Position numbers and translations under genes: made by a program | Notes under the pieces: generated by a model | Seen by the model: only the letters and a program-made list of their open reading frames with translations | Told to the model about the DNA's origin: nothing | Database searches by the model: none | Assembly (NCBI GenBank): GCA_001823545.1 | Contig: MHUV01000001.1 | Span: forward strand, 37,849-100,128 | Length of the DNA: 62,280 nt | Direction of reading: 5' to 3' | Source: Candidatus Yonathbacteria bacterium RIFCSPLOWO2_01_FULL_43_27 | GTDB taxonomy: Bacteria > Patescibacteriota > Minisyncoccia > Phycocordibacterales > UBA1550 | In this document: positions 4,108 to 57,095 of the stretch, one piece after another | Layout of the letters: each line of letters opens with the position of its first letter | Position numbering within the stretch: the stretch's first letter is position 1

Positions 4108-4140
4108 AAAAGCACCCATTAGGGTGTTTTTATTTTATTT
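4108..4140. terminator. bidirectional hairpin terminator between tRNA-Arg and the convergent element
   Basis: gcaccc-atta-gggtgt stem flanked by an A-run upstream and a T-run downstream. Confidence 0.6.
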
Positions 4141-4263
4141 GTGCCCTCGTGAGGAATCGAACGTGAAGGGGGTCGGGGAAACATCTGTTTCTCCGTGGAG
4201 GAAGGCTTGGGAAAACCGTGGGTTTCCCAGGAGTGAGATAGCGAAGCGTCCTCACGAGGGCAC
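4141..4263 (-). repeat. tRNA-Arg minihelix-mimic element (copy A1), candidate structured RNA
   Basis: Perfect 14-bp terminal inverted repeat gtgccctcgtgagg (4141-4154) / cctcacgagggcac (4250-4263). The minus-strand 3' end gttcgattcctcacgagggcac equals the last 22 nt at the tRNA-Arg 3' end. The core is shared with 18858-19004 and 48473-48617. Confidence 0.6.
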
Positions 4264-4302
4264 CATAAAAAATACCCCCTTAATGTGGGGTATTTTTTAT
4301 GG
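4263..4302. repeat. 16-bp-stem palindromic hairpin
   Basis: ccataaaaaatacccc ... ggggtattttttatgg. Confidence 0.7.
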
Positions 4303-4348
4303 TGCCCTCGTAGCAAGGCGCCTGCGCGCCTTGCGTGAGGAATCGAAA
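4302..4348 (-). repeat. second inverted copy of the tRNA-Arg 3' end, interrupted by a 24-nt GC hairpin (copy A2)
   Basis: gtgccctcg [tagcaaggcgcctgcgcgccttgc] gtgaggaatcgaaa. Confidence 0.55.
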
Positions 4349-4645
4349 GACGGAGTATGTTTTGTTTAGCAAAACAAAACTACGAGTCGAGTGAGAAGCG
4401 AATACCTGGAGCTTCGCAAGATCGGAAATTATTTTTCTAGCAAGAAAAATAATTGAGAGGGGGTCGCGACTTTTGTAAGACGACGGTCGAGCAAAAAGTT
4501 GTGACCACGGAATTTTGTGAGTGACGACGAACAAAATATCTGTGACCGAGACGAACAATTATCTTCGACCGTCATTGCATTTATCTCAATAGTATAGTAG
4601 AAAACAAGAGGATAAGTTACTAAAAAAATCTATAGGAGGAATGGT

Positions 4646-5809: not shown

Positions 5810-7315
5810 TTATTCTCTGTTTTCGCTTGGTAAAGTTTTGAGATAATTTTTTACAATTACAATGGTGATCACGATGTATGAAATAATGAGTTCAAAAAAT
5901 GAAAATGATATTTTTGAAATCGTTGCAAATGGAATGTGTGAAAAAAGTGAAACTACAGAAATAATGTACGAGAGAAGAATATGTGCAACAGAAGACAAGA
6001 TTGTTCCTAAAAATGGAACCCACGAAAGTAGTGCGACGAGCGCGGTAAAAAACATTACAAGCGGTATGACGGGAAGGATAAAAATATTTGCGATAAATGA
6101 AATGAGCGAGAGACTTCCTGTCTGATACAAAATGAGGGGCAGTACAAAAATTTGTGTTGCGAATGTGGTGGTCACAATTTCTTGAAGCATGCTCTGACGA
6201 ATCCATAAAAAATATTTATTGAGTACGGGTGCGAACACGACGAGTGCAAGTGTCGCCATAAACGAAAGCTGAAATGAAACATCATGAAAGAGAATGAGTG
6301 GGTTCAAAAAAATCATCACACCTCCTGCAAGTGCGAGCGCGCGAAGTGCGCTCCCCTCGCGTCCCATCGCGCGTGCAAGAATAACGACGAGCACCATGAT
6401 CGTCGCGCGCACCACCGTCGCGCCACCACCGACCATCAGCGCAAACAATATCACTGTACCGACACTCATACTCACGCGAAGAAAAAATGGGAGGACCACG
6501 AGTGCGCGTGTCGCACCACTTGCAACGATGGCGATGTTGTACCCAGAGAGTACGACAATGTGCGCCACTCCTACGTCACGAAATTTTTGCAGCAGTTCAC
6601 TGCCGAGCGATTGCTTCTCCCCGAGGAGGATGCCACCCGCGAGCGATGCTTCTGGTTCAGGAATTGCACGAAACATATTTTCAAAAAGCCATGCTCTCAT
6701 GGCAAACAATTTTTCATATAAAAAATTTCCGTGACCACGAGCGACCACGGTAACTTCTGGAAAAAACATTTGATAAAAATTTTTTTCTTTCGCAAGATAC
6801 GCTCGATAGTCGAATGCGCGCGCTCCTTCCTTTGGTGCAAAATTTTTAGGGATTGCTAATTCTCCTTTCAGAACGAGTTCATCTCCATAGTAAAGTTTTG
6901 GGTGCGCTTGTGTGCGCACAAGGACATGCACAGGGCGCTCAAGGACATCGTGCGCCCCACCATAAAAGACATCTCTCGCCTCAAGGACAATGTTGGTATA
7001 TTCTTCTCGGACATCAGGCTGTGTAACAACCATTCCACCCACACGGACCGACGTTCCTACAAACACATCTAATATATGTGCGTTCTGTATATTCGATGAA
7101 ACATCGACACAAAGAACCCCAAGTGCGCATGAAGCAAGAACAAATGAAACAAAGAAACTACGCTGATGCGACGACACCACATTCACCAAGAGGATAAGAA
7201 TGAATGCAAGTACCAGAAATAAAACTGTAAACGAATATCCAAAATTGAAAATGCTTTCAATCGAAACCCCAAGGATGAAACCAAGAATGAAACCAAAAAA
7301 ATATTTCGATGACAT
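5810..7315 (-). CDS. comEC: ComEC/Rec2 family DNA-uptake channel protein (no beta-lactamase domain)
   Basis: 501-aa polytopic membrane protein. The N-terminal OB-like region, the DYRAYLAKEKNFYQMF motif and the multi-TM competence domain match the ComEC pattern. Confidence 0.75.
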   Translation of the reverse strand: MSSKYFFGFILGFILGVSIESIFNFGYSFTVLFLVLAFILILLVNVVSSHQRSFFVSFVLASCALGVLCVDVSSNIQNAHILDVFVGTSVRVGGMVVTQPDVREEYTNIVLEARDVFYGGAHDVLERPVHVLVRTQAHPKLYYGDELVLKGELAIPKNFAPKEGARAFDYRAYLAKEKNFYQMFFPEVTVVARGHGNFLYEKLFAMRAWLFENMFRAIPEPEASLAGGILLGEKQSLGSELLQKFRDVGVAHIVVLSGYNIAIVASGATRALVVLPFFLRVSMSVGTVILFALMVGGGATVVRATIMVLVVILARAMGREGSALRALALAGGVMIFLNPLILFHDVSFQLSFMATLALVVFAPVLNKYFLWIRQSMLQEIVTTTFATQIFVLPLILYQTGSLSLISFIANIFILPVIPLVMFFTALVALLSWVPFLGTILSSVAHILLSYIISVVSLFSHIPFATISKISFSFFELIISYIVITIVIVKNYLKTLPSENRE

Positions 7316-18473: not shown

Positions 18474-18746
18474 ATGAACAAAGCAGCTATCGTCGATATC
18501 GTTCACGAGAAAATGGGTGGTACGAAAGTCGGCGCAGAACAGACTGTAGACGCAATTCTTGAGTCAATCGTAAAGACACTCAAGGTAGGCGGTGAAGTAT
18601 CAATCGCTGGACTTGGTATTTTTTCAGTAAAGCCTCGCGCAGCACGCACAGCACGTAACCCAAAGACAGGAGAAACCGTTCAGGTTCCTGCAACAAAGGT
18701 TCCAAAGTTCCGCGCAGCAAAGGCACTCAAGGATGCAGTAAAGTAA
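18474..18746 (+). CDS. hup: HU-family DNA-binding protein
   Basis: MNKAAIVDIVHEK...GLGIFSVKPRAARTARNPKTGETVQVPATKVPKFRAAKALKDAV. Confidence 0.95.
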   Translation: MNKAAIVDIVHEKMGGTKVGAEQTVDAILESIVKTLKVGGEVSIAGLGIFSVKPRAARTARNPKTGETVQVPATKVPKFRAAKALKDAVK

Positions 18747-18762
18747 TTTCATAAAGTTACTC

Positions 18763-18798
18763 AACAAAAAAACACCGTGTAAACGGTGTTTTTTTGTT
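18763..18798 (+). terminator. intrinsic terminator after hup
   Basis: aaaaaaacaccgt-gtaa-acggtgttttttt. Confidence 0.85.
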
Positions 18799-18820
18799 TA
18801 CCCTGAGTTTATTGAAGAGT

Positions 18821-19004
18821 GCGGGATGGGAGATCGGTCATGAGTTACATTGTAAGAGGATGGGAGACGCTTCGCTATCGAACTCGTCGCTTCGCTCCTC
18901 TTTAGAAACCCACGGTTTCTAACGTTCGCTTCGCTCACTGTTTTCCTCCACGGGGAACCATAGGTTCCCCGACCCCCTCCTGAGTTCGATTCTCCCATCC
19001 CGTC
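18821..19004 (+). repeat. tRNA-Gly minihelix-mimic element (copy B1), candidate structured RNA
   Basis: 5' GCGGGAT-GGGAG equals the acceptor-5' plus T-stem-5' strands of tRNA-Gly(UCC). 3' GAGTTCGATTCTCCCATCCCG equals the tRNA's T loop, T-stem-3' and acceptor-3' strands. The core is nearly identical to 48473-48617 (reverse complement). Confidence 0.6.
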
Positions 19005-19049
19005 AAAAAATGCACTCTAAAATGTTGCACATTTTCTCGTATTTTTTGT

Positions 19050-19186
19050 GCGGGATGGGATCTCGGTCACGAGTTACTAAGTGTGCTCGGGTGGGTACAC
19101 CCTGCGCGCACTAAGTACTCTCGACCCCGCCTCAGCGACCCGCTTTGCGGGTGCCCGCTTCCGGCTTTCGATTCTCCCATCCCGTC
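19050..19186 (+). repeat. tRNA-Gly minihelix-mimic element (copy B2) with a different GC-rich insert
   Basis: 5' gcgggatggga ... 3' ttcgattctcccatcccgtc. The insert shares ggtcacgagttactaagtgtgctc with 48199-48224 (reverse complement). Confidence 0.55.
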
Positions 19187-19230
19187 AAAAAATGCACTCT
19201 AAAATGTTGCACATTTTCTCGTATTTTTTG

Positions 19231-19301
19231 TGCGGGATGGGAGAATCGAACTCCCCACCTCAGTTTGGAAAACTGATGTTTTACCAATAAACTAATCCCG
19301 C
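19231..19301 (-). tRNA. tRNA-Gly (anticodon UCC), no encoded CCA
   Basis: Minus-strand cloverleaf: GCGGGAT/ATCCCGC acceptor, anticodon arm TCAGT-TTTCCAA-ACTGA, T arm GGGAG-TTCGATT-CTCCC. Confidence 0.85.
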
Positions 19302-19341: not shown

Positions 19342-20232
19342 CTAGCCAACGACAGAATGTACCTTAGCAACTATTTCATCAAGTGTAAAGTTTGCCTTTA
19401 CCATAAAGTCTTTTGCGCCAAGGGCCATTGCCTTCTCAAGGTCATCTTTTTGTCCTAGATTACTCAAGATAATTACAGGGATATTTGCAATCTTTGGGTT
19501 TGCCTTAATGCGTGTAAGGATCTCAAAACCATCAACGCCAGGGAGAATGAGGTCGAGGAGAATGATATCAGGGGTTCGTTCAGCAAGAACAGCGAATGCA
19601 ATTTCTGCGTCAATCGCATTTTTGACCTCGAAACCTTCACCAGAAAGCTTGCGCACCAGAAGTTCACGAAGGAATTTATCATCTTCTATTACCAAAACAA
19701 AGATCTTCTTCCCCGTGGGTGTAGAAGAAGGTGCAGAACCAACAGATTCTTCCTTTGAGGCTGGCGCTGTTTCTTCTGGAAGAGAAACGGCCCCTGTTGC
19801 GGTAACATTTTGTCTACGCATAATATCATTCCCTTCATTAGACGCTGAGGTATTACCCTCCTCCAGTACACGGCGCACTTTTTCGAGTACCTCGCTAGGA
19901 TCAAACACAGCCTTAATCAAAAAATCACGTGCACCCAACTCGCGCGCGCGAGCTATCTCTACTGGTTGTCCTGAATTTGAAATGATAATCGTCGGAACAC
20001 CCTTAAGTGCTGGGTCCTGACTCATTTCTTCAAGAACTTCAATGCCACCCTTGCGAGGCATCAAAATATCGAGAAGGACACAATCGGGGGTCACTTCTCT
20101 CATTTTTGCGAGCGCAACAATGCCATCTTCAGCGCGATCAACAATGTATCCATTTTTTACCAACTTTCCCGCAAGAACGTCGCGGAGTACGACGTCATCT
20201 TCTGCAATAATAATTCTCTTTTGCCCTGACAT
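19342..20232 (-). CDS. response regulator with two receiver (REC) domains and no output domain
   Basis: Two CheY-like modules (IIIAEDDVVLRD...DCVLLDILMP...K and VLVIEDDKFLRE...DIILLDLILP...K) joined by a Ser/Pro/Thr-rich linker. Confidence 0.85.
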   Translation of the reverse strand: MSGQKRIIIAEDDVVLRDVLAGKLVKNGYIVDRAEDGIVALAKMREVTPDCVLLDILMPRKGGIEVLEEMSQDPALKGVPTIIISNSGQPVEIARARELGARDFLIKAVFDPSEVLEKVRRVLEEGNTSASNEGNDIMRRQNVTATGAVSLPEETAPASKEESVGSAPSSTPTGKKIFVLVIEDDKFLRELLVRKLSGEGFEVKNAIDAEIAFAVLAERTPDIILLDLILPGVDGFEILTRIKANPKIANIPVIILSNLGQKDDLEKAMALGAKDFMVKANFTLDEIVAKVHSVVG

Positions 20233-34951: not shown

Positions 34952-36631
34952 ATGTTCAAATTCGCCTCCGATACTACCAAAGATGAAAAAATTGCTGAGC
35001 TCCGCAAGCAAGAAGAGGAGGAGTTTCAACAAATAATGGCGCAAAAGCACCAGCTCCCCTACATCAACCTTTCTGCTACCACGATCGATATCTCTGCAGT
35101 CGGTCTCATCAAAGAAGAAACAGCACGCACGGCAAATATTGGACTCTTTAATCTCGAAGGCAAGAAACTTCAGGTCGTAGTGTATACTCCTACCCAAAAA
35201 GAAACACAGGAAGTCATTACTGAACTTACCGAGCGCGGATATACGATAGAAGTATTCCTTGCTTCACATGCAAGTCTTGAAAAGATATGGGAACGCTACC
35301 AAGAAATTTCTGGCGCCACCAAAAGTGAAGTGGGTGTCGTAGATGTTTCTGAAGAAAATCTTGATGCACTCATTGAGCGTTTTAAAACCATCGAAGATGT
35401 GGTCACTTCTCTCAAAGAAACGTTTGTTAATAAAGACGCTCGTTATATTTCAAGGGTTTTCAATATAATTCTTGCTGGATCAATTGGTATTCACGCTTCA
35501 GATATCCATATCGAGCCTGCGGAAGACGTTATTCATATTCGCTATCGTGTTGATGGTGTTCTCCATGAAGTAGGCACGCTCCCTCATAGCTCGTATCGCT
35601 TGTTCAATTCACGCTTGAAACTGATGTCGGGGCTCAAACTCAACGTCGGCACCGAGAGTCAAGATGGACGTTTTACTATTAAAATTGCAGGGCTTAATAT
35701 TGAAATCCGTGTATCGGTCATTCCGAGCGCGTACGGCGAAGGCGTAGTGATGCGTATTTTGAATCCCCTTTCGCTCAATGTTACCCTTGAAGACCTTGGT
35801 ATGAGTAGCCAACTCCTCACTATTATGGAGCGCGAAATCGCAAAGCCTCATGGTATGATTTTGAACACCGGCCCTACAGGATCAGGAAAAACCACGACCT
35901 TGTATGCCTTTTTGAAAAAAATATTCTCTCCTGAGATCAAAATGATGACGATTGAGGATCCTATCGAGTACCATATGCAGGGCGTTTCCCAAACACAGGT
36001 TGAATCCGAAAAAGGATATACCTTCCTCGAAGGACTTCGTTCGGCAATGCGCCAAGACCCTGACGTTATTATGATCGGTGAGATCCGTGACGGCGAAACG
36101 GCAAAAGTTGCTATTAACGCTGCACTTACGGGACATATGGTCTTTTCAACCCTCCACACCAATACTGCCGCAGGTGCCATTCCCCGCCTGATAGATATTG
36201 GCGTTACCCCAAAAATTATTGGTTCATCACTCACCGTCGCCCTTGCGCAACGTCTTGCACGCAAACTTTGTACTGAATGCAAGAAAGAAGATACACCAAA
36301 CGAACGCGAGAAAAAGATTATTGACGAGGTGGCTGTTCTTATTAAAGAAAAAAACGGCACCACTGTTCAAACAGAACATATCTGGCGCTCAGTCGGCTGT
36401 AGTGCATGTAACAATACCGGATTTAAAGGACGTGTCGGTATTTTTGAGGCAGTGTTGATGACTCCAGAAATCGAAGCGCTCCTTGATACGATCCCGAGCG
36501 AGCGCGAGATTAGCGAAGTGGCAAAGAAACAAGGAATTCTCAATATGCGCGAGGATGGTATCGAGAAAATTATGAACGGTATTACGTCATTTGACGAAGT
36601 TGAGCGCGTGGTAGACCTTGCACGAGCATAA
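34952..36631 (+). CDS. pilB: type IV pilus / type II secretion assembly ATPase (PilB/GspE family)
   Basis: Walker A NTGPTGSGKTT, Asp/His box region MIGEIRD...TGHMVFSTLHTN, tetracysteine CTECK...CSACNNTG. Confidence 0.9.
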   Translation: MFKFASDTTKDEKIAELRKQEEEEFQQIMAQKHQLPYINLSATTIDISAVGLIKEETARTANIGLFNLEGKKLQVVVYTPTQKETQEVITELTERGYTIEVFLASHASLEKIWERYQEISGATKSEVGVVDVSEENLDALIERFKTIEDVVTSLKETFVNKDARYISRVFNIILAGSIGIHASDIHIEPAEDVIHIRYRVDGVLHEVGTLPHSSYRLFNSRLKLMSGLKLNVGTESQDGRFTIKIAGLNIEIRVSVIPSAYGEGVVMRILNPLSLNVTLEDLGMSSQLLTIMEREIAKPHGMILNTGPTGSGKTTTLYAFLKKIFSPEIKMMTIEDPIEYHMQGVSQTQVESEKGYTFLEGLRSAMRQDPDVIMIGEIRDGETAKVAINAALTGHMVFSTLHTNTAAGAIPRLIDIGVTPKIIGSSLTVALAQRLARKLCTECKKEDTPNEREKKIIDEVAVLIKEKNGTTVQTEHIWRSVGCSACNNTGFKGRVGIFEAVLMTPEIEALLDTIPSEREISEVAKKQGILNMREDGIEKIMNGITSFDEVERVVDLARA

Positions 36632-40210: not shown

Positions 40211-42145
40211 TTAATCTTCTCCTTGAAGAATTGCGGTCAACACATCTTCAGGAACTTCACGAACTTTTTCTTCTTGAGGAATTTCAACAGGTGGTTTTTC
40301 TTGTACTTGAGGTTCTGCCACCGGGCGCACAAGGATAACAGGTTCTTCTTTTTTAATTTCCACGGGCGCGTCTTCTTTCTTTTTTTGCTCAACTTCTTTT
40401 TGTGGGGCAGTTGGTGCTTCAACCTTCTTCTCTTTGTGCTCTTTAAGCACATCGGCAAGTGCTGATTTTAATACGCTGGTACCTTTTTGTGGAGGTGTTT
40501 TTATTGCAGAAGAAGCAGGTCGCATCACGCTAGGCATTTTCTTTTCTGCGAGCACCGAAAGCGGTACTGAAGGAGAAGGAGAAACTGATGCAGGCGCAGA
40601 CGGTTTCGAGATAATTTCTTTTTCTATATTTTTAAATGCTTCGGCAAAAGGTTTTTTAGTTTCTTCTTTGGGAGGCATAGTATCCCTTTTGAGAGGAGCA
40701 GGGCGACGAACATCCTCGCCGTTTCGTGTTATTTGCGCGGTAGGGGAATATGATGTTCTTTGTTGTGCTGGTGGTACTTCTTGTCGCGCAGGCATTCTCG
40801 CTTCTTCACGAGACGTTTCTTCAGGCACACGAGGTGCACCATTTTCTGCTGTGATATACCAATCTGCAATATTTTTTTCTACTTCCGTACGTGAACGCGC
40901 ATACAACTGACGCGATGAAGCAATGACGTCGTCTTTGCTTGATTTTTCGGGAGGAAGAATAGGAGGCATGGTCACTGCAGAAAATGGGTGTGATGCGACA
41001 CCATCGATCATCAATTTCAAATAAATTTGCGTGAAGCCAAGGTTAACCATGTCTTCTGCGGTAAACACGGGTGCATATTCTTTCTCAAGCACCTCCGCGT
41101 CGGTTGCGCCTACGCGAAACATTATCTGTGTACCCACGTTACCAAACACCGCAGCGCGTACTTTTTCATCCATCTGTTCGATGTATTGATGCGCCATAAT
41201 GAGCGCGAGCTTGTACTTGCGTGCCTCGGACAAAATATCGGCAAATGCTTCGTTGGCGAACGACTGGAATTCGTCCACATACATATAAAAATTCGGAAGT
41301 TTTTTGAGCTCAGGCTCAGTAAGTTCTGCGCGCGACATTGCGGCAAGATATATCTTGGTGATGATCATACCACCAAGAAGATTGGCATTACCCTCCCCCA
41401 TTTGTCCTTTAGAAAGATTTACGATGAGAATCTTTCGTTCATCCATCGCTTTACGTAAATCAAAACTCGAGTGTGCCTGTCCAATAATGTTTCTAATGAG
41501 TGGATTGGAAGTGAACTGTCCGAGCTTATTTTGAATACCAGGGACCGCTTCTTTTGCATACTGCTCGCTATACTTTGCAAATTCATCAACCCAATACGAT
41601 TTCACTGACGGATCTTTTATATTATCTACTACCTTTTTTCGATATGTCTTGTCCGTAAGTACTCGACTAACCCCGAGGAGCGTTGATCCTGGATATTCAA
41701 GGAGCGCGAGTAAGGCATTCATGAGAATGTACTCCATACGCGCCGACCACGTTTCTGGTCCCCAGATTTTTTTGAACGCACTCATAAGACCGTTCGCCAC
41801 CAAGTGGCGTTTGTCCGCACCGACATCCTCCATCACATTGAATGATATTGGATTTTCCATATCGAACGGCGCAAAGTAAATAACGTCCTTCACGCGCTCT
41901 GGTGGAATGTATTCAAGAAGCAGTGCTGCAGATTTTCCGTGCGGATCAATGAATGCGAATCCTTCGCCGTTCTTTATATCTTGCACTGCCATATTCTCAA
42001 TCGCCGTAGACTTACCCATACCCGTCTTTCCGATGATATACATATGACGCGTGCGATCTTCGGCCTTGATACCAAAAGGAACACGCTTATTGCGACGATC
42101 TGTTTCCGCAAAATAGGTGATACGATTTTTGTCGTAAAGGTGCAT
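40211..42145 (-). CDS. type IV secretion coupling-protein-like ATPase (TraD/VirD4/DUF87 class) with long Lys/Glu/Pro-rich tail
   Basis: Walker A IIGKTGMGKST, Walker B-like YMYVDEFQSF. C-terminal ~230 aa are low complexity. Confidence 0.7.
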   Translation of the reverse strand: MHLYDKNRITYFAETDRRNKRVPFGIKAEDRTRHMYIIGKTGMGKSTAIENMAVQDIKNGEGFAFIDPHGKSAALLLEYIPPERVKDVIYFAPFDMENPISFNVMEDVGADKRHLVANGLMSAFKKIWGPETWSARMEYILMNALLALLEYPGSTLLGVSRVLTDKTYRKKVVDNIKDPSVKSYWVDEFAKYSEQYAKEAVPGIQNKLGQFTSNPLIRNIIGQAHSSFDLRKAMDERKILIVNLSKGQMGEGNANLLGGMIITKIYLAAMSRAELTEPELKKLPNFYMYVDEFQSFANEAFADILSEARKYKLALIMAHQYIEQMDEKVRAAVFGNVGTQIMFRVGATDAEVLEKEYAPVFTAEDMVNLGFTQIYLKLMIDGVASHPFSAVTMPPILPPEKSSKDDVIASSRQLYARSRTEVEKNIADWYITAENGAPRVPEETSREEARMPARQEVPPAQQRTSYSPTAQITRNGEDVRRPAPLKRDTMPPKEETKKPFAEAFKNIEKEIISKPSAPASVSPSPSVPLSVLAEKKMPSVMRPASSAIKTPPQKGTSVLKSALADVLKEHKEKKVEAPTAPQKEVEQKKKEDAPVEIKKEEPVILVRPVAEPQVQEKPPVEIPQEEKVREVPEDVLTAILQGED

Positions 42146-46312: not shown

Positions 46313-47815
46313 CTATTTAACCCCGTATTTTTCTCTAATTTCCGCCAACTCTTTCTCTTCTTCTGCTTCTTTTTTCTCCTTCCCTGCTTCGCCGAGTTTT
46401 TTTAACTCCTCGATGGGTAGTTCTGCAAGCTCAATTGCCCGTTTCACGAGAAACGCTTCATTGTTATTTTCAGGAAAATCAAACACTTCTTCGAGGAGCG
46501 CATGAAGAATAAACCCTATTTTAGGGCTTGGTTTTTCACGTGTAACATCCATAACCTTGGCGCCATCAATCTTGAGCATCCCTACAGACACCGGAGAACG
46601 CATTGCCTCCTCGATCATTGACTCATACTTTCGCAAACGATATGGAGTTTCTTTTGGTCGTCCCATGCCAATACGGTCACATCCGCGAAGTTTCATAAGA
46701 TCCCATACATTTTCTGGTCCTACGTTACGCACAATACGGCGCACCGCTGAAAGAGTTATTTTCTCAATATCTGAGAAGAAAAGATGGTACCGTACCAACG
46801 TTGATACCACATCAACCATCTTTTTTGAGTATTTCAAACGCTCAAGAGCTTTTTTTGTTACACGCCCCCCTACCACATCATGCCCATAGAATGTCCAATC
46901 ATTCTTTTCCTCTGACCAACGACGTGTTTCTGGCTTTGAAATATCATGCATAAGTGCAGAAAGGCGTATATGGAGTGGCCAATCACGATCTGCCGAATGT
47001 TGCACAGCACGCAAATTATGCTCCCATACCGTATAAATATGTGAACCATTTTGTTTAACATCAATCCCCCGCCTCAATTCAGGCATAATATACTCAAGGA
47101 GTCCAAGCTTTTCACACATAACAATACCTACCATTGGGTCTTTTGACATCACCATCTTGGAAAACTCGGTATTAATACGCTCCATAGCAATCTCTTTGAG
47201 ATTAGGCGCAGTTTTAATGATAGCCTCTTGAGTCTCGATGTTAATCGTGAAACCTAAATCCGTCGCAATACGTACCGCCCGTAAGATGCGGAGGGCATCC
47301 TCGTGAAAGCGATCATATGGGCTTCCTACCGTCCTCAAGACTTTGTCCTTTATGTCCTTTATTCCATCATATGGGTCAACGACGTGTCCTTTAGACAGTC
47401 CCATAGAATCATCATAAGCAATAGCGTTAATAGTAAAGTCCCTTCTTTTAAGATCGTCAGGTAGTTTCGCATGAAACGAGACACTGTCAGGACGACGTTT
47501 GTCACTATATACCCCCTCTGTACGATACGGCGTTATTTCCACAACCTTTACGGTTTCGTCGTCTGTTTCACTTACCACACCGACAGTTCCATATTCATTT
47601 TCATAAAATGTCTCTGTAAAGAGTTCCTGAATTTGTTCAGGTTTCGCATCTGTCGTTACATCCCAATCTTTTGGTTTTCGTCCTATTACCATATCCCTTA
47701 CGCACCCACCCACTAAATATGCTTCAAAACCAGCATCTCGTAATGTTTTGGTTATTCGTGAAACCTCTTCAGGAATTTGGTAGTTAAGTGTTATTTCCTT
47801 TGGTGTGTGAGGCAT
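46313..47815 (-). CDS. cca: CCA-adding tRNA nucleotidyltransferase / poly(A) polymerase family with HD domain
   Basis: AYLVGGCVRDMVIGRKPKDWD, RRDFTINA, HD region HDISKP. Start set at MPHTPKEI. Confidence 0.85.
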   Translation of the reverse strand: MPHTPKEITLNYQIPEEVSRITKTLRDAGFEAYLVGGCVRDMVIGRKPKDWDVTTDAKPEQIQELFTETFYENEYGTVGVVSETDDETVKVVEITPYRTEGVYSDKRRPDSVSFHAKLPDDLKRRDFTINAIAYDDSMGLSKGHVVDPYDGIKDIKDKVLRTVGSPYDRFHEDALRILRAVRIATDLGFTINIETQEAIIKTAPNLKEIAMERINTEFSKMVMSKDPMVGIVMCEKLGLLEYIMPELRRGIDVKQNGSHIYTVWEHNLRAVQHSADRDWPLHIRLSALMHDISKPETRRWSEEKNDWTFYGHDVVGGRVTKKALERLKYSKKMVDVVSTLVRYHLFFSDIEKITLSAVRRIVRNVGPENVWDLMKLRGCDRIGMGRPKETPYRLRKYESMIEEAMRSPVSVGMLKIDGAKVMDVTREKPSPKIGFILHALLEEVFDFPENNNEAFLVKRAIELAELPIEELKKLGEAGKEKKEAEEEKELAEIREKYGVK

Positions 47816-47951
47816 ACAAAATGATAGGTCAAATAGGTTATAGTGTTTTTGGCTCCTTTTCGCCAATGAAACACCATCAATCTTCGTTTCTCATAGTGTA
47901 GAGTATTTTTGGTTTTTTTACCAATATGCGCTATGGTTATATGAAGTACAT

Positions 47952-48069: not shown

Positions 48070-48092
48070 GTGTCCATGCCAGGATTCGAAAA
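48070..48092 (-). repeat. degenerate inverted copy of the tRNA-Arg(UCG) 3' end
   Basis: tgtccatgccaggattcgaaaac compared with the reverse complement of the tRNA end, tgcccccgccaggattcgaacct. Confidence 0.45.
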
Positions 48093-48358
48093 CGAACGCG
48101 GGGTACCCATCGAGCACGATGGGTCGCGCGAGTAGGGCCGAGCGGAGTGAGGAGCGACGGCGACAAACGAGCGCTTGGCCGAGCATCCTTCATCCCTGAG
48201 CACACTTAGTAACTCGTGACCACAAGAGAAACATGTAGTGCGGTAGACTTAGTAACTCGTGACCACAGAAAGCAATATGTGTAGCAAATATAATTAATAC
48301 CCTGTACACATCTTCCCAAAACATAAAAAATCTGTATAGTATAAGAGATAGAAAGTTT

Positions 48359-48472: not shown

Positions 48473-48617
48473 GCGGGTAGGGAGAATCGAACTCAGGAGG
48501 GGGTCGGGGAACCTATGGTTTCCCGTGAAGGAAAACAGTGAGCGAAGCGAACGTTAGAAACCGTGGGTTTCTAAAGAGGAGCGAAGCGACGAGTTCGATA
48601 GCGAAGCGTCTCCCATC
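48473..48617 (-). repeat. tRNA-Gly(GCC) 3'-end-mimic element (copy C2); same core as 18858-19004
   Basis: gcgggtagggagaatcgaactc is the reverse complement of the last 22 nt of the adjacent tRNA. By eye the remaining ~120 nt differ from copy B1 at only about two positions. Confidence 0.6.
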
Positions 48618-49014
48618 TTTTGTATTATATACCGCACCCTTCGACAAACTCAGGGCAGGCAATAAAAAAACTCCCTAGAGGGGAGTTTTTTGTTTAGAAA
48701 GCCTTAAAAGGACATTTTGGCAAAAGTGGTCAATATGTCTTATTAAGGAATGATCATAATAATTGATAACGAGAATGTTCGATTAAAGGACACCACTATA
48801 TTAGGCTATTATTTCACAACATACTGTCAACTACGCAAATCGCAAAAATATGGGTATAACTGTGCAAAACTGTGGATAACTCTGGGGATAGTGTTAATAA
48901 AGGACAAAAAACACTAAACTTGACAGCTGTTTATTGTTAGTAAAAATAAAGGACATTTGTATTAAACCTATATTTATCAATGGTTTTATACAAAAACGGT
49001 CCAAAATACTGTTA

Positions 49015-49126: not shown

Positions 49127-49534
49127 ATGACAAAAGATACTGAATCCCGAGGTATTGGTAGGCTCGGAGAGGATATCGCTGTAAAACACCTTGAAAACAA
49201 GGGTTTTACAACTATTGAGAGAAATTACCTTAAAAAATATGGGGAAATTGATATTATCGCCAAAAAGGGGGATATCCTTCATTTTATTGAAGTAAAGAGT
49301 GTTTCATGTGAAAATAACCCCTCAAATGTTCCGCGGGCAACAACCGATAATTATAGACCAGAAGACAATATTCACACCCAAAAAATCAAAAGGTTGTCAC
49401 GCACAATCCAAGCGTATTTATTAAGTAATTATCAAAATAAAGAACCTGCGTGGGTATTCGATGTAGTAACGATAAAAATTGACATGATCAACAAACGAGC
49501 GTATGTTAAGTTCCTTGAGGATCTTGTTTTGTAA
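49127..49534 (+). CDS. yraN: YraN-family (UPF0102) endonuclease
   Basis: GRLGEDIAVKHLENKGFTTIERNYLKKYGEIDIIAKKGDILHFIEVKS. Confidence 0.8.
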   Translation: MTKDTESRGIGRLGEDIAVKHLENKGFTTIERNYLKKYGEIDIIAKKGDILHFIEVKSVSCENNPSNVPRATTDNYRPEDNIHTQKIKRLSRTIQAYLLSNYQNKEPAWVFDVVTIKIDMINKRAYVKFLEDLVL

Positions 49535-49666: not shown

Positions 49667-49763
49667 CTCGAGTGTGTTAAAAAAATAGAAACATAAAATA
49701 AAAGTGGTATTTACTCTTTGTAAATACCACTTTTATTTTATGTTGTGGTGCTATGTATTTATT

Positions 49764-49828
49764 ATTAGCGACGTAGAGCGAGAGGAATAAGAAAGTACTC
49801 TTTCTTATTCCCGAGCCGAGGAGCTAAT
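49764..49828 (+). repeat. R-element copy 3
   Basis: attagcgacgtagagcgag-aGGAATAAGAAAGtactCTTTCTTATTCC-cgagccgaggagctaat. Confidence 0.75.
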
Positions 49829-49903
49829 ATAGGTCAATACCCTGCGGTCTCTGCCGCAGGGGCCTATATTTTGCATTTGCGGTGTTTTCCTTTATGATAG
49901 TGC

Positions 49904-49923
49904 ATATCCACAAGTTATCCACA
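49904..49923 (+). promoter_or_regulatory. DnaA boxes upstream of dnaA
   Basis: atatccaca (49904-49912) and the perfect ttatccaca (49915-49923). Confidence 0.7.
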
Positions 49924-50011
49924 CGTTTAACACTGTTTTATCCGCTTGTTTACATTTTTTATTTGTAGGCTTGGGAATATAATAGGGATACCTTCTTTCT
50001 TTTAACTTCTT

Positions 50012-51370
50012 ATGACTGACAATACACAACTTTGGGAATACGCACTTCGTGACCTTGAAAACAGTCTTTCACGAGCAAACCTTAGTATGTGGTTTAAAAA
50101 CACCTCTATTATCAAACAAGAAGAGGGGATGGTGGTCATAGGAGTTCCAAATGAATTTGTAAAGGATTGGCTCCAAAACAAGTTCCACAAGATGATTTTG
50201 AAGTCTCTTCGTAATCTCGTGGAAAACACTCGTGGTGTAGAATATACGGTATGTAAAGTTGAGGAACCTAAAAAGGAGGAGAGGGCGGTAAAAGAAGAAT
50301 TTAAGGGTGGTTCAGAGCTTCCTATTGCCGACCTTTATATTAACCGAGAAGACGGGTTAAATCCTCGCTATGTGTTCGATAATTTTATTATTGGGCCCTT
50401 TAATGAGCTTGCGTACGCTGCATCACAGGCAATTTTGAAGAAAGTAGGTACCAATGTATATAATCCACTCTTTATTTATGGAAATACTGGTTTGGGGAAA
50501 ACACACCTCATTCAAGCAATAGGAAACCATATTAAGAAAAATTACCCCGGAAAGAAAGTGTTTTATATCACTTCTGAAAAATTTTCTGTTGATTACATCA
50601 ATTCTGTACAGCAGGGAATTAAGGCAATGAATGTTTTTAAAGAGAAATATCGTAAATATGATCTATTTGTTATGGACGATATTCAGTTTCTTTCTAATAA
50701 AGAAAAAACTCAAGAAGAGCTTTTTCATGTCTTTAATGAGCTTTACCACAACAACAAGCAGATTATTTTCTCATCTGATAGACACCCAAACTATATTCCT
50801 GCCCTTGAGGACCGTTTGAAGTCACGCTTTGGGTCAGGAATGATCGTAGATGTGCAAGAGCCGGATTATGAGTCACGCCTTGCTATTCTTCGTGCAAAGG
50901 CACAGGCAAGCCAATTTTGCCCCCCTGATGACATCATTAATTACCTTGCTTCTTCTGTACAAGGCAATGTTCGTGAACTTGAAGGGTTGCTTAATGGTGT
51001 TATTTGCCAGTCTCAGCTTAAAAATAGGCATTTAAGTCTTAATGAAATTAAACCATTTATTAAAAATACAGCAAAACCAAAGAAGTTGCTGTCTGTTAAG
51101 GAGGTGGTGAAAGTTATTTCAGATTATTATAATATTCAAGAAGGGGATATTTATGAAAAAACTAGAAAAAAAGAGGTTCTAAAACCACGACAAATTGCTA
51201 TGTTTATCTTACGTGAGGATTTTAATATCTCGTTTCCTACAATAGGCCAGAAGCTTGGCGGCCGTGATCATACAACCGTAATGCATTCTTGTGAAAAAGT
51301 AGAGAAAGATATGAAAGATGATCTTTCTTTAATGCAAGAGATTGATCAGCTCCGTGCAATGCTTTCATAA
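50012..51370 (+). CDS. dnaA: chromosomal replication initiator DnaA
   Basis: YNPLFIYGNTGLGKTHL, FVMDDIQFL, C-terminal PRQIAMFILRE...GGRDHTTVMHSCEKV. Confidence 0.95.
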   Translation: MTDNTQLWEYALRDLENSLSRANLSMWFKNTSIIKQEEGMVVIGVPNEFVKDWLQNKFHKMILKSLRNLVENTRGVEYTVCKVEEPKKEERAVKEEFKGGSELPIADLYINREDGLNPRYVFDNFIIGPFNELAYAASQAILKKVGTNVYNPLFIYGNTGLGKTHLIQAIGNHIKKNYPGKKVFYITSEKFSVDYINSVQQGIKAMNVFKEKYRKYDLFVMDDIQFLSNKEKTQEELFHVFNELYHNNKQIIFSSDRHPNYIPALEDRLKSRFGSGMIVDVQEPDYESRLAILRAKAQASQFCPPDDIINYLASSVQGNVRELEGLLNGVICQSQLKNRHLSLNEIKPFIKNTAKPKKLLSVKEVVKVISDYYNIQEGDIYEKTRKKEVLKPRQIAMFILREDFNISFPTIGQKLGGRDHTTVMHSCEKVEKDMKDDLSLMQEIDQLRAMLS

Positions 51371-51630: not shown

Positions 51631-52731
51631 ATGCACTTCACTTGTAATAGAGAGACTCTACAAAAATACATATCGCAAGCAGAACGAGTGACAGGGAAAC
51701 ATCTCTCACTTCCTATTCTCGGATCTGTGTTATTAGCGACCAATAATAAGATGGTTATTATTCGTGCAACAAACCTTGAGGTTGGGGTTGAGTTTCAAAT
51801 TCCGGCAGAAATAAAAACAGAAGGAAGTATTGTGCTTCCTGGAGCCCTCCTTGCAAATACCCTTGGAAGTATACCCGACGAAAAGGAGATTAGTCTTATA
51901 GCGTCAAATGGCGTATGTAAAATTACTACAAAGAAAAAAACATTAAATATTAAAGGGTTTTTACCAGATGATTTTCCTACTATCCCTATTATTCATAATG
52001 GTGAAGGTTTTATAATGTCTTCAGCGAAGTTTATACAAGGAGTAAAAAGTGTAGTAATGAGCGCGGCTATTTCTGATATTAAGCCTGAAATAGTAAGTAT
52101 TTATCTTTATCAAAACGGTGATTCTTTAATTTTTGTAGCTACTGACTCTTTTAGGCTTGCAGAAAAGAAGATTAAACAACAAGGAGTTACTTTATCACAA
52201 GGAGTTATTATTCCTGCAAAAAATATCATTGAAATGGTACGTATTTTAGAATCAGAGAGCGGGGACATTAATTTTTTAATTACTAAAAACCAAATTTCGT
52301 GCACAGGAAAATCACTCTACTTCACTTCTCGTGTAATACAAGGTATTTACCCTGATTACGAGCAAATACTTCCTAAAGCACACACTACAGAAATAACCCT
52401 TTTAAAAGAAGATTTAGTAAATAACCTTAAATTATCAACCTTTTTTTCTGATAAATTTAATAAAGTAACACTTACTATTAATCCGCAAAAGAAAATTTGT
52501 ATTATTTCAACAAAAAATATAGAAGTGGGAGAAACAGAATCAAATATTGATGCAATGCTTACTGGTGATCCTGTTGAAATATCCCTTAATGGAAAACATC
52601 TTTTTGATTGTCTTTCTGTAATAGAAAAAGATAGTGTAGTAATACAGTTTAATGGCGCGGATAAACCAGTGGTAATACGAGGACTAGGTGATAATTCCTT
52701 TACGTACCTTACCATGCCTCTTACACGTTAA
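51631..52731 (+). CDS. dnaN: DNA polymerase III beta sliding clamp
   Basis: Position after dnaA, 366 aa, three-domain clamp pattern (SLPILGSVLLA..., ATDSFRLAE...). Confidence 0.9.
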   Translation: MHFTCNRETLQKYISQAERVTGKHLSLPILGSVLLATNNKMVIIRATNLEVGVEFQIPAEIKTEGSIVLPGALLANTLGSIPDEKEISLIASNGVCKITTKKKTLNIKGFLPDDFPTIPIIHNGEGFIMSSAKFIQGVKSVVMSAAISDIKPEIVSIYLYQNGDSLIFVATDSFRLAEKKIKQQGVTLSQGVIIPAKNIIEMVRILESESGDINFLITKNQISCTGKSLYFTSRVIQGIYPDYEQILPKAHTTEITLLKEDLVNNLKLSTFFSDKFNKVTLTINPQKKICIISTKNIEVGETESNIDAMLTGDPVEISLNGKHLFDCLSVIEKDSVVIQFNGADKPVVIRGLGDNSFTYLTMPLTR

Positions 52732-55265: not shown

Positions 55266-57095
55266 ATGTTGGATTTTTTTACCAAAAAACAAGATTCTCT
55301 CCAAAAGGAAAACACCATCCCTGTTCTTCCTCAAGAGTTATATAGCGATACGGGATTAAACCTCGCAGATATTATCGCACCCTCGGCGGTAAAGGTTAAT
55401 TCTAAGCACCTTAACTTAGGTGAAAAGGTGGTGCGTTCGTTTTTTGTGACGTCGTACCCAAGCGTGCTTACGGATAATTGGCTTACCCCGCTCATTAATC
55501 TTGATAAAATTTTCGATATTTCAATTTATATTCATCCTGTCGATACAGCGGAAATAATGAAAAAGTTTGAGAAGAAGGTAGCCGAGGTTCAAAGTCAAAT
55601 AAGTGTGCGTGAAGAAAAAGGGTTTGTGCGCGACCCTATGCTTGAGGGTGCTTACCGCGACCTCGAAGATCTGCGTGATCGTCTGCAACAAGCACAAGAA
55701 AAAATGTTTGACGTTGGGTTGTATCTCTCGCTCTATGCAGATTCAGAGGAAGAGCTCGGTCATATTGAGGCAGAAATTAAATCAATGCTTGAGTCACGCT
55801 TGATTTATCTTCGCCCTGCATTATTTCAGCAAGAGACAGCCTTTCAAAGCATCCTTCCACTCAATGACGACAAGATTGAGGTTACCAAGAAAATTAATTC
55901 AGAACCACTTTCAAGCTTTTTTCCATTTGTGTCGTTTGACCTTACTTCAGACAAGGGTATTTTATACGGTATTAATCGCCATAATTCCTCGCTTGTTCTG
56001 TTCGACCGCTTTTCACTCGAAAACTATAACTCGTTGACGTTTGCAAAGTCTGGTTCTGGAAAGTCATATGCAACAAAACTTGAGATCTTGCGTAGTTTGA
56101 TGTTTGATACTGACGTTATTGTGATCGACCCCGAGCGTGAATATGAATCAATGGCAGAAGCGGTAGGCGGGCGCTATTTCAATATCTCGCTCAATTCCAC
56201 GCACCATATCAATCCATTTGATCTTCCCGTACCTCGCGAAGATGAATCTCCTGCGGACGTGCTTCGCTCTAACGTTATTTTGCTCGTAGGACTTTTCCGT
56301 TTAATGCTCGGTGGTTTAACAAGTGAGGAGGATGCGATCGTTGATCGTGCAATTTCAGAAACCTATGCACTCAAAGACATTACACCAGACTCTGATTTTA
56401 CGGCAATCGAACCACCGCTTCTTTCGGATTTTGAAATGGTGCTTTCTGGTATGGAAGGAGCAGAATCAATCCTTACACGACTTACCAAATACACGCGTGG
56501 TTCATGGGCGGGATTTTTGAATCAACCTTCTAATGTTGATATTAATCGTAAGTTTATTGTATTTTCAGTTCGTGATATGGAGGACGATTTGAAGCCGGTG
56601 GCGATGTATATCGTGATGCACTTTATTTGGAACGCAATTCGTCGCACCTTGCGCAAGAGACTTTTAGTGGTGGATGAGGCGTGGTGGATGATGAAATCAG
56701 AGGATACTGCAAGTTTCTTGTATGCGCTCGCAAAACGCGGACGCAAATACTATTTAGGTGTTTCAACTATTACGCAAGACGTTAATGATTTCTTAAAATC
56801 TCCGTATGGTCTCCCTATTATGACCAACTCGTCTATTCAACTTCTCCTCAAGCAATCACCCACCAATATCGACGCCGTACAAAAAGCATTTAATTTAACT
56901 GACGAGGAAAAATTTCTCCTTTTGGAATCAGGTGTGGGGGAGGGAATCTTTTTTGCAGGGATGAAACACGTTGCGATTAAGACTATTGCTTCCTATACAG
57001 AAGATCAAATTATTACGTCTGATCCCTCGCAACTTCTTGCGATCAAAAAAGCAAAACGTGAATTATCGGAAGCGGAAGACGGCGGTAAGGCATAG
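55266..57095 (+). CDS. VirB4/TraC/TrsE-family type IV secretion ATPase
   Basis: Walker A FAKSGSGKSYATK, Walker B LLVVDEAWWMM, typical N-terminal region VRSFFVTSYPSVLTDNWL. Confidence 0.85.
   Translation: MLDFFTKKQDSLQKENTIPVLPQELYSDTGLNLADIIAPSAVKVNSKHLNLGEKVVRSFFVTSYPSVLTDNWLTPLINLDKIFDISIYIHPVDTAEIMKKFEKKVAEVQSQISVREEKGFVRDPMLEGAYRDLEDLRDRLQQAQEKMFDVGLYLSLYADSEEELGHIEAEIKSMLESRLIYLRPALFQQETAFQSILPLNDDKIEVTKKINSEPLSSFFPFVSFDLTSDKGILYGINRHNSSLVLFDRFSLENYNSLTFAKSGSGKSYATKLEILRSLMFDTDVIVIDPEREYESMAEAVGGRYFNISLNSTHHINPFDLPVPREDESPADVLRSNVILLVGLFRLMLGGLTSEEDAIVDRAISETYALKDITPDSDFTAIEPPLLSDFEMVLSGMEGAESILTRLTKYTRGSWAGFLNQPSNVDINRKFIVFSVRDMEDDLKPVAMYIVMHFIWNAIRRTLRKRLLVVDEAWWMMKSEDTASFLYALAKRGRKYYLGVSTITQDVNDFLKSPYGLPIMTNSSIQLLLKQSPTNIDAVQKAFNLTDEEKFLLLESGVGEGIFFAGMKHVAIKTIASYTEDQIITSDPSQLLAIKKAKRELSEAEDGGKA

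Follow-up and report, generated by a model that had tools for sequence, protein, structure and literature searches.

Candidate insertion elements in the 3′ flank of tRNA genes of Patescibacteria

The 62,280-nt stretch of the Candidatus Yonathbacteria bacterium RIFCSPLOWO2_01_FULL_43_27 genome analysed here (the window, contig MHUV01000001.1) carries, behind its tRNA-Gly(UCC) gene, two consecutive units whose ends match that tRNA. We favour, with a probability of about 0.57, the reading that unit 1 (type 1) and unit 2 (type 2) are stacked non-autonomous insertion elements that target the T-loop region and duplicate the 3′ part of the tRNA gene. As parts of the same reading, the units would belong to a superfamily of small (about 100-250 nt), non-coding elements found in the 3′ flank of tRNA genes throughout Patescibacteria (the candidate phyla radiation, CPR), and their tRNA-like ends, judged by sequence comparison, would be copies of the 3′ part of the host tRNA gene made at insertion and not the product of evolved mimicry. 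The comparisons below establish a strict association with tRNA 3′ flanks, the duplication of the target, the intact state of the tRNA gene, a conserved folded core, the lack of coding capacity and polymorphism among strains.

The tRNA-matched ends of the units

The tRNA-Gly(UCC) gene occupies positions 19230/19231-19301 on the minus strand, is intact and does not encode CCA (ARAGORN; Rfam tRNA, 67.8 bits). It is the host, or target, of the two-unit array, and the locus is flanked by an HU gene (18474-18746) and a response-regulator gene (19342-20232). The plus-strand units open with GTGCGGGATGGGA(GA), at 18819-18833 and 19048-19060; the three starts of this string (repeat family D2) are 18819, 19048 and 19230, the last being the 3′ end of the tRNA itself. 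Its leading GT complements the discriminator and the trailer's first base. Both units close with TTCGATTCTCCCATCCCGTC (18985-19004 and 19167-19186). A sequence-only reading of this stretch had described two units with tRNA-matched ends and differing inserts, together with a G1-U72 pair and a 'discriminator C', and all of this is borne out. Its unit starts, 18821 and 19050, are correct for the GCGGGAT string, the repeat itself beginning 2 nt sooner, at GT. The 76-nt direct repeat that it had reported is indeed exact (18985-19060 = 19167-19242). Exactness ends at both edges, and a weaker similarity continues on the left for 12 nt more (88 nt at 94%).

Related loci were collected with a type-1 search pattern (CACGG..TCCCCGACCCCCT..TTCRA) from the contigs of a one-genome-per-species database. 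The pattern matched at least 117 stretches, nearly all in metagenome-assembled genomes (MAGs) of Patescibacteria; the lineages among the matches listed include Paceibacterota/Parcubacteria, Saccharibacteria and others. One match in Streptomyces, within a GC-rich stretch in a tRNA-free neighbourhood, was set aside as apparent chance. Among the 117 matches listed, the motif is convergent with a tRNA gene at about 100 loci, usually 45-65 nt from the gene end, and the convergent arrangement of element and tRNA that had been put forward as a rule therefore holds generally. The tRNA identities found with type 1 are Ala, Arg, Asp, Cys, Gln, Glu, Gly, His, Ile, Leu, Lys, Met, Phe, Pro, Ser, Thr, Trp, Tyr and Val. 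The label 'Gly-type', given earlier to the two units, is right in that their ends match a Gly tRNA, but this is incidental, the same cores occurring at about 20 tRNA identities. With a covariance model, 115 copies were recovered from 100 loci; 12 of these copies escape the pattern, and by estimate about one quarter of the tRNA genes that had not prompted the retrieval of a locus carry an element. Some 10% of type-1 cores are orphans with no tRNA gene in reach (L003, L006, L036, L053, L066, L071, L083, L089 and L116); they may reflect lost tRNA genes, undetected tRNAs or other targets.

The related loci provided 224 tRNA genes (214 for the upstream control). A direct copy of tRNA positions 61-73 lies downstream of 100 of the 224 genes and upstream of 0 of the 214; for an inverted copy of positions 54-65 the corresponding numbers are 92 and 2. 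These upstream controls, which are essentially zero, and the occurrence of the arrangement in over 100 genomes speak against both a chance resemblance and an artefact in assembling the tRNA gene, the second of which the sequence-only reading had named as a possible refutation. A 76-nt exact repeat and near-identical cores can confuse short-read assemblers, and some contigs may be chimeric; the elements are in this respect a source of mis-assembly in MAGs. The same arrangement as in the window is however present in independent assemblies from different samples (L118 with 11 similar places, and L124), so that we regard this explanation as scarcely credible.

The elements share a common anatomy. 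On the strand opposite the tRNA, a direct repeat that begins in the T loop and extends beyond the gene end by 1-10 or more nt is followed by a 5′ motif, a core ended by CGACCCC, an inverted copy that starts from G53/T54 and is typically about 12 nt long, a spacer made of an A-run, a hairpin and a T-run, and finally the intact tRNA gene. The far end repeats, directly and almost perfectly, the reverse-complemented 3′ end of the tRNA gene, with discriminator and trailer included. The exact part of this direct repeat usually reaches some 15 nt into the gene, as far as T-loop position 59/60; past this point a weak similarity to the T loop is found (ATCTCAC vs ATCGAAC), and ATCGAAC is kept in some copies. 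At 17 loci the direct repeat continues for 3 to 10 or more nt past the tRNA end into the genomic trailer and not into CCA (in L005, for example, it reads ...ACGAA), which rules out a copy of the mature tRNA. Because the genomic trailer is included, the direct repeat is a duplication of DNA, and neither a copy of the tRNA 5′ strand nor one of the mature tRNA. The 5′ end of the units had been interpreted as mimicry of the acceptor-5′ plus T-stem-5′ strands; it is instead this direct repeat of the reverse-complemented tRNA gene 3′ end.

The near end is an inverted copy with a sharp start at G53/T54. Its median perfect match to the local tRNA is about 11 nt, covering the T loop and T stem, and a match of at least 12 nt is seen in 38% of cases with the local tRNA vs 1% with other tRNAs. 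The two ends differ in completeness, positions 61-73 being perfect in 64 of 96 direct repeats and in 3 of 96 inverted copies. Since the inverted copy mostly reaches only through the T stem, a full minihelix is exceptional, and this window represents the well-matched extreme of the family. The well-preserved copies are all flanked by the direct repeat. Positions 49-53 are absent from the inverted copy, and the distribution of local pairing to positions 61-65 equals that of a shuffled control; the inverted copy therefore contains no closed T arm. A local T-arm hairpin in the 3′ copy was considered on the basis of compensatory cases in L005 and L032, which did not generalise. Thus the minihelix with a closed T arm that had been proposed for the units is not supported, whereas a long-range stem does form in the window copies. 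The anatomy given by the sequence-only reading is right, and its 'mimic' interpretation only partly so.

These observations bear directly on an alternative in which the units are small structured RNA genes. Their ends would pair into an acceptor/T-stem minihelix modelled on the adjacent tRNA, and the RNA would be a substrate of tRNA enzymes (RNase P, RNase Z, the CCA-adding enzyme, perhaps a synthetase) for processing, capping or charging; in another form of this idea, the tRNA 3′ end would find in the 5′ segment an antisense partner or a site for primer binding. If the elements were expressed, they would represent a large family of tRNA-like-capped RNAs. The ends can close a 12-20 bp stem on either strand in the window copies, perfection is much commoner in the complement of the tRNA 3′ end than in the inverted copy (also in L131), and a gene for a CCA-adding enzyme lies within the window, all of which are in keeping with such an RNA. 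Full acceptor pairing is nevertheless missing in most members, the T arm is not closed, and the repeat takes in trailer DNA. Moreover, mismatches in the closing stem show neither transition nor wobble bias, and selection for pairing in this stem was rejected on that basis. We consider RNA genes unlikely, and the ends of the elements to be better described as insertion-derived copies of the tRNA gene.

The conserved core and its predicted fold

In the window, the element layout is found at four of the five tRNA genes: Gly(UCC), Arg(GCG), Arg(TCG) and Gly(GCC). Behind each of the last three, a spacer with an A-run, a hairpin and a T-run is followed by an element on the opposite strand, the near end of which repeats the T loop, the T-stem-3′ strand and part of the acceptor-3′ strand of its own tRNA. 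The covariance model detects exactly three type-1 cores in the window, at 4155-4255 (minus strand), 18876-18991 (plus strand) and 48485-48600 (minus strand), with scores of 69-80 bits, in agreement with the earlier statement that unit 1 shares its core with sequences at 4.2 kb and 48.5 kb. The first belongs to the type-1 element behind tRNA-Arg(GCG) (4140-4263, minus strand; 80.5 bits), both ends of which match that tRNA, and the last to the element behind tRNA-Gly(GCC) (48473-48640, minus strand; 69.4 bits), which is near-identical to the unit 1 core. Unit 2 shares its core, type 2, with the element behind tRNA-Arg(TCG) (48071-48223, minus strand), which matches that tRNA in T loop and T-stem-3′ strand and contains a 24-mer, GGTCACGAGTTACTAAGTGTGCTC, found exactly at 19065 (plus strand) and at 48198-48221 (minus strand). 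The sequence identity of this 24-mer had been noted correctly, with the second copy placed at 48199-48224. A further fragment of the type-2 locus lies at 48245-48266. The outer element of the Arg(GCG) array (4301-4556, minus strand, far boundary approximate) represents a third type; it contains CGACCCC and TCTCGGTCAC, and a hairpin is inserted between the T-stem-3′ and acceptor-3′ segments of its inverted copy. All three types have two motifs in common, namely ATCTCAC or (A)TCTCGGTCAC on the 5′ side, inside the repeat, and CGACCCC shortly before the T-loop copy.

The type-1 core of unit 1 (18868-18983, plus strand; covariance-model match 18876-18991, 75.7 bits) contains two hairpins supported by covariation. 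Hairpin P1, TTAGAAACC-CAC-GGTTTCTAA, lies at about 18902-18922 and hairpin P2, CGGGGAACC-ATA-GGTTCCCCG, at 18951-18971, both on the plus strand. In the family the top of P1 is invariant (AACC-NNN-GGTT) and P2 has the form CGGGGAAAC...GTTTCCCCG. P1 and P2 together are 95.4% paired, and two-sided changes occur at 15 of the 18 pairs in some sequences (295 cells). This level of covariation was reached by none of 500 shuffles, and slid controls were all far lower. The motif CGCTTCGCT occurs three times in unit 1 (18867-18936), and many family members carry it in their variable inserts.

The run that follows P2 mirrors its 5′ strand by a G to C and A to T rule. In unit 1 this mirror 'third strand' is CCCCCTCC (18973-18980, plus strand) and shows third-strand covariation. 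P2 5′ strands of composition G4A3 are found with C5T2, and G3A4 with C4T3; GGGGAAAC is followed by CCCCCTTC, GGGGAAC by CCCCCTCC, GGGGAGA by CCCCCTCT, GGGAAAAC by CCCCTTTC, GGGAGAAA by CCCCACTTT and GGAAGGGA by CCCATCCCT. A mirror repeat is incapable of Watson-Crick pairing. The rule corresponds to a triple-helix code, C.G-C/T.A-T if the third strand is read as the C-rich strand or G.G-C/A.A-T if it is read as the G-rich strand. The code is obeyed at 145 of 190 positions in 38 unique haplotypes, compared with a null of 120 ± 3.8, and none of 5000 permutations reached this value; the last A before a C-G pair is a systematic exception. From these sequence data we infer that P2 and the third strand would form an intramolecular triplex, and the hairpin so encoded offers a rare comparative pointer to a triple helix in a bacterial element.

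The strand on which the core folds is not singled out by these data. Wobble counts choose neither strand, with 17 G.T vs 10 A.C when pattern-fixed positions and an ambiguous bulge are excluded, and folding energies are alike on both. An apparent preference for the strand in tRNA direction was traced to ascertainment bias of the search pattern. Anti-Shine-Dalgarno mimicry by the TTCCTCCAC linker was also rejected, its CCTCC varying to CCGCC, CCTAC, CCGAC and CCTTC.

No open reading frame (ORF) of at least 90 aa is present at 18.75-19.34 kb, between the HU and response-regulator genes, and the conserved block falls in different frames between copies; protein coding was discarded on these grounds. 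Rfam identifies only the five true tRNAs in the window, in agreement with ARAGORN, and E≤10 adds hairpin noise such as microRNA-like matches on a palindrome; no Rfam family matches the units, at the gathering threshold or at E≤10. Full-text literature searches, motif string included and of incomplete literature coverage, returned no description of the family, which appears to be a large and undescribed family of tRNA-gene-associated CPR elements. A phage origin was rejected, the pattern having no match in 2.9 million viral contigs. The family could be used as a marker of CPR genomes and as an experimental target in cultured Saccharibacteria.

The properties of the core return us to the RNA genes considered above. 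Covarying hairpins with a triplex-coded strand are what a folded RNA would display, the core is conserved across CPR lineages, and the A-run/T-run hairpin spacers could end convergent transcripts. No position-specific -10 (TATAAT-like) box was however found upstream of the elements in either orientation, a simple locus scan for promoters yielded nothing relevant, and the G.U vs A.C counts choose no strand for the RNA. In addition the elements lie between terminator-like hairpins, which were read by eye to bracket them in the window and in roughly twenty other loci. A GC-rich hairpin with T-runs is clear by eye at Arg(GCG), Gly(GCC) and many other loci, and a weak palindrome is seen at Gly(UCC). 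We continue to regard the units as probable insertion elements.

Turnover among relatives, proposed insertion and known systems

The locus behind tRNA-Gly(UCC) has a layered structure. The HU-gene terminator (18763-18798, inverted repeat I3) is followed after 20 nt by the outer direct repeat GTGCGGGATGGGAGA (18819-18833, plus strand, repeat family D2), which has the same position in L131/L132 and which we read as the original site of the tRNA gene 3′ end. At its inner edge lies a 24-nt fragment, TCGGTCATGAGTTACATTGTAAGA, similar to the 5′ end of type 2 (18834-18857, plus strand), and then the partial direct repeat GGATGGGAGA (18858-18867, plus strand, repeat family D3), a 10-nt duplication flanking the fragment. 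The type-1 core is closed by the inverted copy of tRNA positions 53-73 that forms the 3′ end of unit 1 (18984-19004, plus strand; inverted repeat I1, 29 nt, 90% complementary). The distal spacer (19005-19047), an exact repeat of 19187-19229, leads to the middle direct repeat GTGCGGGATGGGA (19048-19060, plus strand, D2), which is the tRNA 3′ end in reverse complement, beginning near position 62 and extending one base beyond the discriminator. The GC-rich type-2 core of unit 2 (19061-19166, plus strand) opens with TCTCGGTCACGAGTTAC, contains CGACCCC and ends in a hairpin, CGACCCGC-TTT-GCGGGTG. It is followed by the inverted copy of tRNA positions 54-73, TTCGATTCTCCCATCCCGTC, which forms the 3′ end of unit 2 (19167-19186, plus strand; inverted repeat I2, 26 nt, 88% complementary). 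The spacer adjoining the tRNA (19187-19229), within the exact 76-nt repeat, consists of an A-run, a weak AT-rich imperfect palindrome and a T-run; a terminator scan made no call there.

Two sets of contigs were compared with the window. The first was made up of contigs encoding an identical HU protein (L118-L126). The arrangement of the window is preserved in L118, in 11 places similar to it, and in L124. In L123 only unit 1 is present, and the contig lacks exactly 182 nt, corresponding to the unit 2 core plus one 76-nt repeat; the copy-number variation predicted from the window is thus seen in related genomes. In L119 and L125 a type-3 element, of the type found at 4301-4556, replaces unit 1, and a type-2 element adjoins the tRNA. 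L125 has the outer repeat, the 24-nt fragment and GGATGGGAGA as in the window, followed by a different core. In L120 the unit 2 core is joined to tRNA-Gly(CCC), with an end matching that tRNA; variants or presence/absence of the unit 2 core are accordingly seen in L119, L120 and L123. In three independent contigs, L121, L122 and L126, the HU side and the 5′ half of unit 1 are joined, via an identical core, to the tRNA-Gly(GCC) locus. The near-identical type-1 cores at 18868-18984 (plus strand) and 48485-48600 (minus strand) are inverted with respect to each other and lie 29.6 kb apart. The junctions suggest an inversion polymorphism of the origin-adjacent segment from 18.9 to 48.5 kb, or else assembly chimeras. 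The elements shape genome structure, in that copies 29.6 kb apart appear to mediate inversion and in that they join different tRNA loci in other strains. At the locus end of L122 (GCA_001002845.1, LCMX01000038.1), the type-2 core found in the window at Arg(TCG) abuts a different tRNA (3′ end ...ATTCCTTCACCGCCCGC) and ends in a copy of it, a further instance of a single core whose end matches its local tRNA.

The second set consisted of contigs found through the response regulator (L127, L131 and L132); the closest named relatives of this protein are from Yonathbacteria/Minisyncoccia, at about 70% identity. In L131 and L132, from Yonathbacteria CG10, the response regulator is 70% identical and the order HU - tRNA-Gly - response regulator is kept. 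These loci carry one type-1 unit, of the unit 1 subfamily, and lack the 24-nt fragment, unit 2 and the 10-nt GGATGGGAGA duplication in the corresponding unit. Their direct repeat is perfect (17/17), the inverted copy and core being decayed. In L127, whose response regulator is 93% identical, tRNA-Gly(UCC) has no element, and a gene other than that of the window lies downstream of the tRNA. Different tRNAs can have near-identical cores whose ends match the local tRNA, for example in L095 at Arg(GCG) and L110 at Gly(CCC), and in L054 and L106 within one MAG. Finally, the inverted copy and outer repeat of the 48473-48640 element match Gly(GCC), while an inner remnant, GATGGGAGA, is of Gly(UCC) type. 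This remnant shows that a copy has moved between the two Gly genes and has kept a portion of its former repeat. Near-identical strains differ in the presence and type of their elements, which would be odd for a housekeeping RNA and counts further against the RNA genes discussed above.

These data can be accommodated by the following model, in which the units are insertion elements. An element would enter at the T-loop region of a tRNA gene, where staggered breaks would be filled in and the 3′ part thereby duplicated, usually over 15-25 nt, and over 10 and possibly 76 nt at Gly(UCC). The tRNA gene would stay whole, its old 3′ end and flank being pushed outward, and repeated insertion at one tRNA would give rise to arrays in which the unit closest to the tRNA is the youngest. 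At Arg(GCG), the direct repeat of the inner element of the array acts as the '3′ end' for the spacer and inverted copy of the outer element, which fits new elements entering at the tRNA and older ones being pushed outward. At Gly(UCC), unit 1 would be old; the 24-nt fragment would have come later, at the inner edge of the outer repeat, duplicating the 10-nt GGATGGGAGA; and unit 2 would be the youngest, either inserted with a 76-nt duplication or lost in L123 by recombination between the 76-nt repeats. The same event would yield the inverted copy, with the target as template, for instance through snap-back or template-switch synthesis, and the near-palindromic T loop, TTCGAA, may aid its formation. 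The fixed start at G53/T54, the variable outer end and the local sequence of the inverted copy fit copying from the target. The moving form would be single-stranded (ssDNA or RNA), as implied by the compensatory changes in the hairpins and the triplex-coded strand of the type-1 core. The elements themselves would be non-autonomous and mobilised by an enzyme acting in trans.

A more specific proposal can be put forward only tentatively. A folded single strand, with two hairpins and a triplex, might recognise the T-loop region, which is universally conserved, in any tRNA gene, rebuild the 3′ end of the gene and copy it onto both of its own ends, which would make the elements a new, Patescibacteria-specific mobile class. 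They might then be SINE-like (resembling short interspersed nuclear elements) and use target-primed synthesis, or they might use structure-specific recombination, and the complement of the tRNA 3′ end might have a role of its own, in primer binding or targeting.

Several points weigh against insertion. No clean pair of empty and filled sites with both flanks conserved was obtained, the downstream gene of L127 being different. The difference between L123 and the window could equally be a deletion between the 76-nt repeats, and the junction contigs L120, L121, L122 and L126 may be assembly chimeras across repeats. How the inverted copy and the spacer arose is our inference. The core sequence is conserved across very deep CPR lineages; this conservation and the better-kept direct repeat (64/96 vs 3/96 for the inverted copy; 17/17 in L131) would also fit a selected host or RNA function. 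No transposase, integrase or reverse transcriptase is present among the 16 window proteins scanned (of many ORFs) or two proteins from related loci, and no autonomous copy or parent transposon was found in the 117 loci listed or in the window.

Searches for a linked enzyme were equally unproductive. Clustering of about 1000 locus ORFs returned housekeeping neighbours and two other families, neither of them consistent across loci. A protein of about 225 aa with an N-terminal helix-turn-helix (Pfam HTH_38, weak match only) occurs at 7 loci (for example L015 5475-6161, L020 2022-2714, L039 5197-5874 and L100 1715-2380), and in 4 of the 7 it lies within about 100-250 nt of the element or tRNA. Large serine recombinases with Resolvase, Recombinase and Zn-ribbon domains lie 0.2-3 kb from the elements at 4 of the 117 loci listed (L034 1624-2958, L036, L053 and L083); these are probably part of ordinary tRNA-gene integrative elements. 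Neither a TnpA nor a RAYT gene turned up in the locus ORF clustering or among the scanned window proteins.

The order of the copies also invites an explanation without dedicated mobility. The units could be a host cis module, that is a tRNA 3′ terminator, insulator or processing cassette, shaped by template switching at T-arm and terminator hairpins similar to origin-dependent inverted-repeat amplification (ODIRA) and spread by recombination between tRNA loci; the G-rich triplex core would then act as a roadblock to read-through. The copies do stand in the order direct (the tRNA), inverted, direct, each junction bearing a hairpin; the T loop TTCGAA is a palindrome in its own right, and in many spacers a near-perfect palindrome runs on from the tRNA-derived arms (L004, L008, L024 and L131). 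Recombination between copies is seen or suggested in L120-L122 and L126, and no mobility gene was found in the proteins scanned. Template switching, on the other hand, supplies no conserved core. It leaves unexplained why near-identical cores occur at unrelated tRNAs in different lineages and why three core types share common end motifs, and the repeat remnant from another tRNA points to movement of the element itself. We judge a host module quite improbable and compare the units below, as insertion elements, with known systems.

The closest parallel is with tRNA-targeting integrative elements. Tyrosine-integrase att sites reportedly lie in the T loop or anticodon loop of tRNA genes. As in these elements, the tRNA gene is intact after insertion, tandem arrays result from reuse of one tRNA, and a far-side direct repeat extends from the T loop to slightly past the gene end. 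Unlike them, the insert here is only 100-250 nt long and encodes no integrase (it has no ORF, and none was found in the 16 window proteins scanned); one core family serves about 20 tRNA identities with locally matched ends, there is an extra inverted copy of the target, and the repeat ranges from 10 to 76 nt.

MITEs (miniature inverted-repeat transposable elements), the 'double-hairpin elements' of Allomyces mitochondria and GC clusters are likewise small, non-coding and relatively GC-rich in an AT-rich genome. Such small repeats further resemble the units in having inverted terminal repeats within a direct repeat, two conserved hairpins and a patchy distribution among strains. The units are set apart from these repeats by inverted ends that derive from the target, by a long duplication of variable size (10-76 nt), by strict targeting to tRNA 3′ ends and by a core conserved throughout a whole superphylum; no parent transposon was found in the 117 loci listed, the window or the viral collection.

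Target-primed reverse transcription of SINEs and long interspersed nuclear elements (LINEs) offers a short non-coding unit spreading by copy-and-paste, variable-length target duplications, carry-over of source flank and 5′-truncated fragments, to which the 24-nt piece may be compared. The units differ in having neither internal promoter nor A-tail, no reverse transcriptase is found among the proteins scanned, and an RNA intermediate is here hypothetical. To our knowledge, no such target-primed system exists in bacteria.

The folding of imperfect inverted repeats in ssDNA, with structure prevailing over sequence, recalls integron attC sites and the attP(+) hairpin of CTX phage used by Xer, a likeness that we take as a lead only. 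In these systems too, insertion next to a fixed site builds arrays, and the end motifs of the units (ATCTCAC or GTTTAAC ... GTTCRAN) loosely recall RYYYAAC ... GTTRRRY. However, attC and attP(+) insertions make no target duplication, the arms here are target-derived, and a role of an integrase or of Xer in the present case is hypothetical. Non-autonomous elements of the IS200/IS605 type (PATE, palindrome-associated transposable elements, and REP, repetitive extragenic palindromes) also have hairpins, in subterminal position, and transpose as single strands; they produce no target duplication, as opposed to the direct repeat found here.

Two RNA systems were also considered. At the 3′ end of MALAT1 and MEN-beta, a triple helix (the element for nuclear expression, ENE) stands directly beside the tRNA-like mascRNA, just as a triplex-coded segment adjoins a tRNA-like segment in the units. 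The code here is C.G-C/T.A-T (or G.G-C/A.A-T), formed by a hairpin and an adjacent strand, and not U.A-U with an A-rich tail; RNase P processing and transcription are unsupported here. With tRNA minihelices and tRNA-like 3′ tags, the window copies share ends that can pair into a 12-bp acceptor plus T-stem helix beside a T-loop sequence. They depart from them in that the T loop is not closed locally, about 100 nt separate the 5′ strand from the T loop, and the acceptor part is missing in most members. A mechanistic puzzle posed by the elements is how one 100-nt core can come to stand behind any tRNA gene and gain the sequence of that gene at both ends.

Neighbouring features of the window

The host genomes are very small and otherwise repeat-poor, yet four of the five tRNA genes of the window carry an element. 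The fifth, tRNA-Pro(UGG) (region 49668-49750), has no element behind it. The gene is followed by a long, near-perfect AT-rich palindromic terminator, with more hairpins at 49760-49870. Since a tRNA gene without an element has one, long symmetric terminators appear native to this genome.

Boxes similar to TGTGGATAA/TTATCCACA, at 48840-48880 and 49900-49930, flank a YraN gene (49127-49534) and tRNA-Pro. They lie just upstream of a putative dnaA (50012-51370, judged by its N-terminus only) and of the next ORF (51631-52731). From its sequence, this region is probably a replication origin, and three element-bearing tRNA genes lie within 2 kb of it.

The gene for the CCA-adding enzyme (46313-47866, minus strand), with PolyA_pol head, RNA-binding and HD domains, is located directly upstream of the Arg(TCG)/Gly(GCC) tRNA cluster; none of the tRNA genes of the window encodes CCA. 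Further genes encode products resembling a type IV secretion system coupling protein, TraG/VirB4-like ATPases, a PilB-type ATPase and ComEC (40211-42145, minus strand; 55266-57095, plus strand; 34952-36631, plus strand; 5810-7315, minus strand). Such a set of DNA-uptake and pilus genes is usual in CPR genomes.

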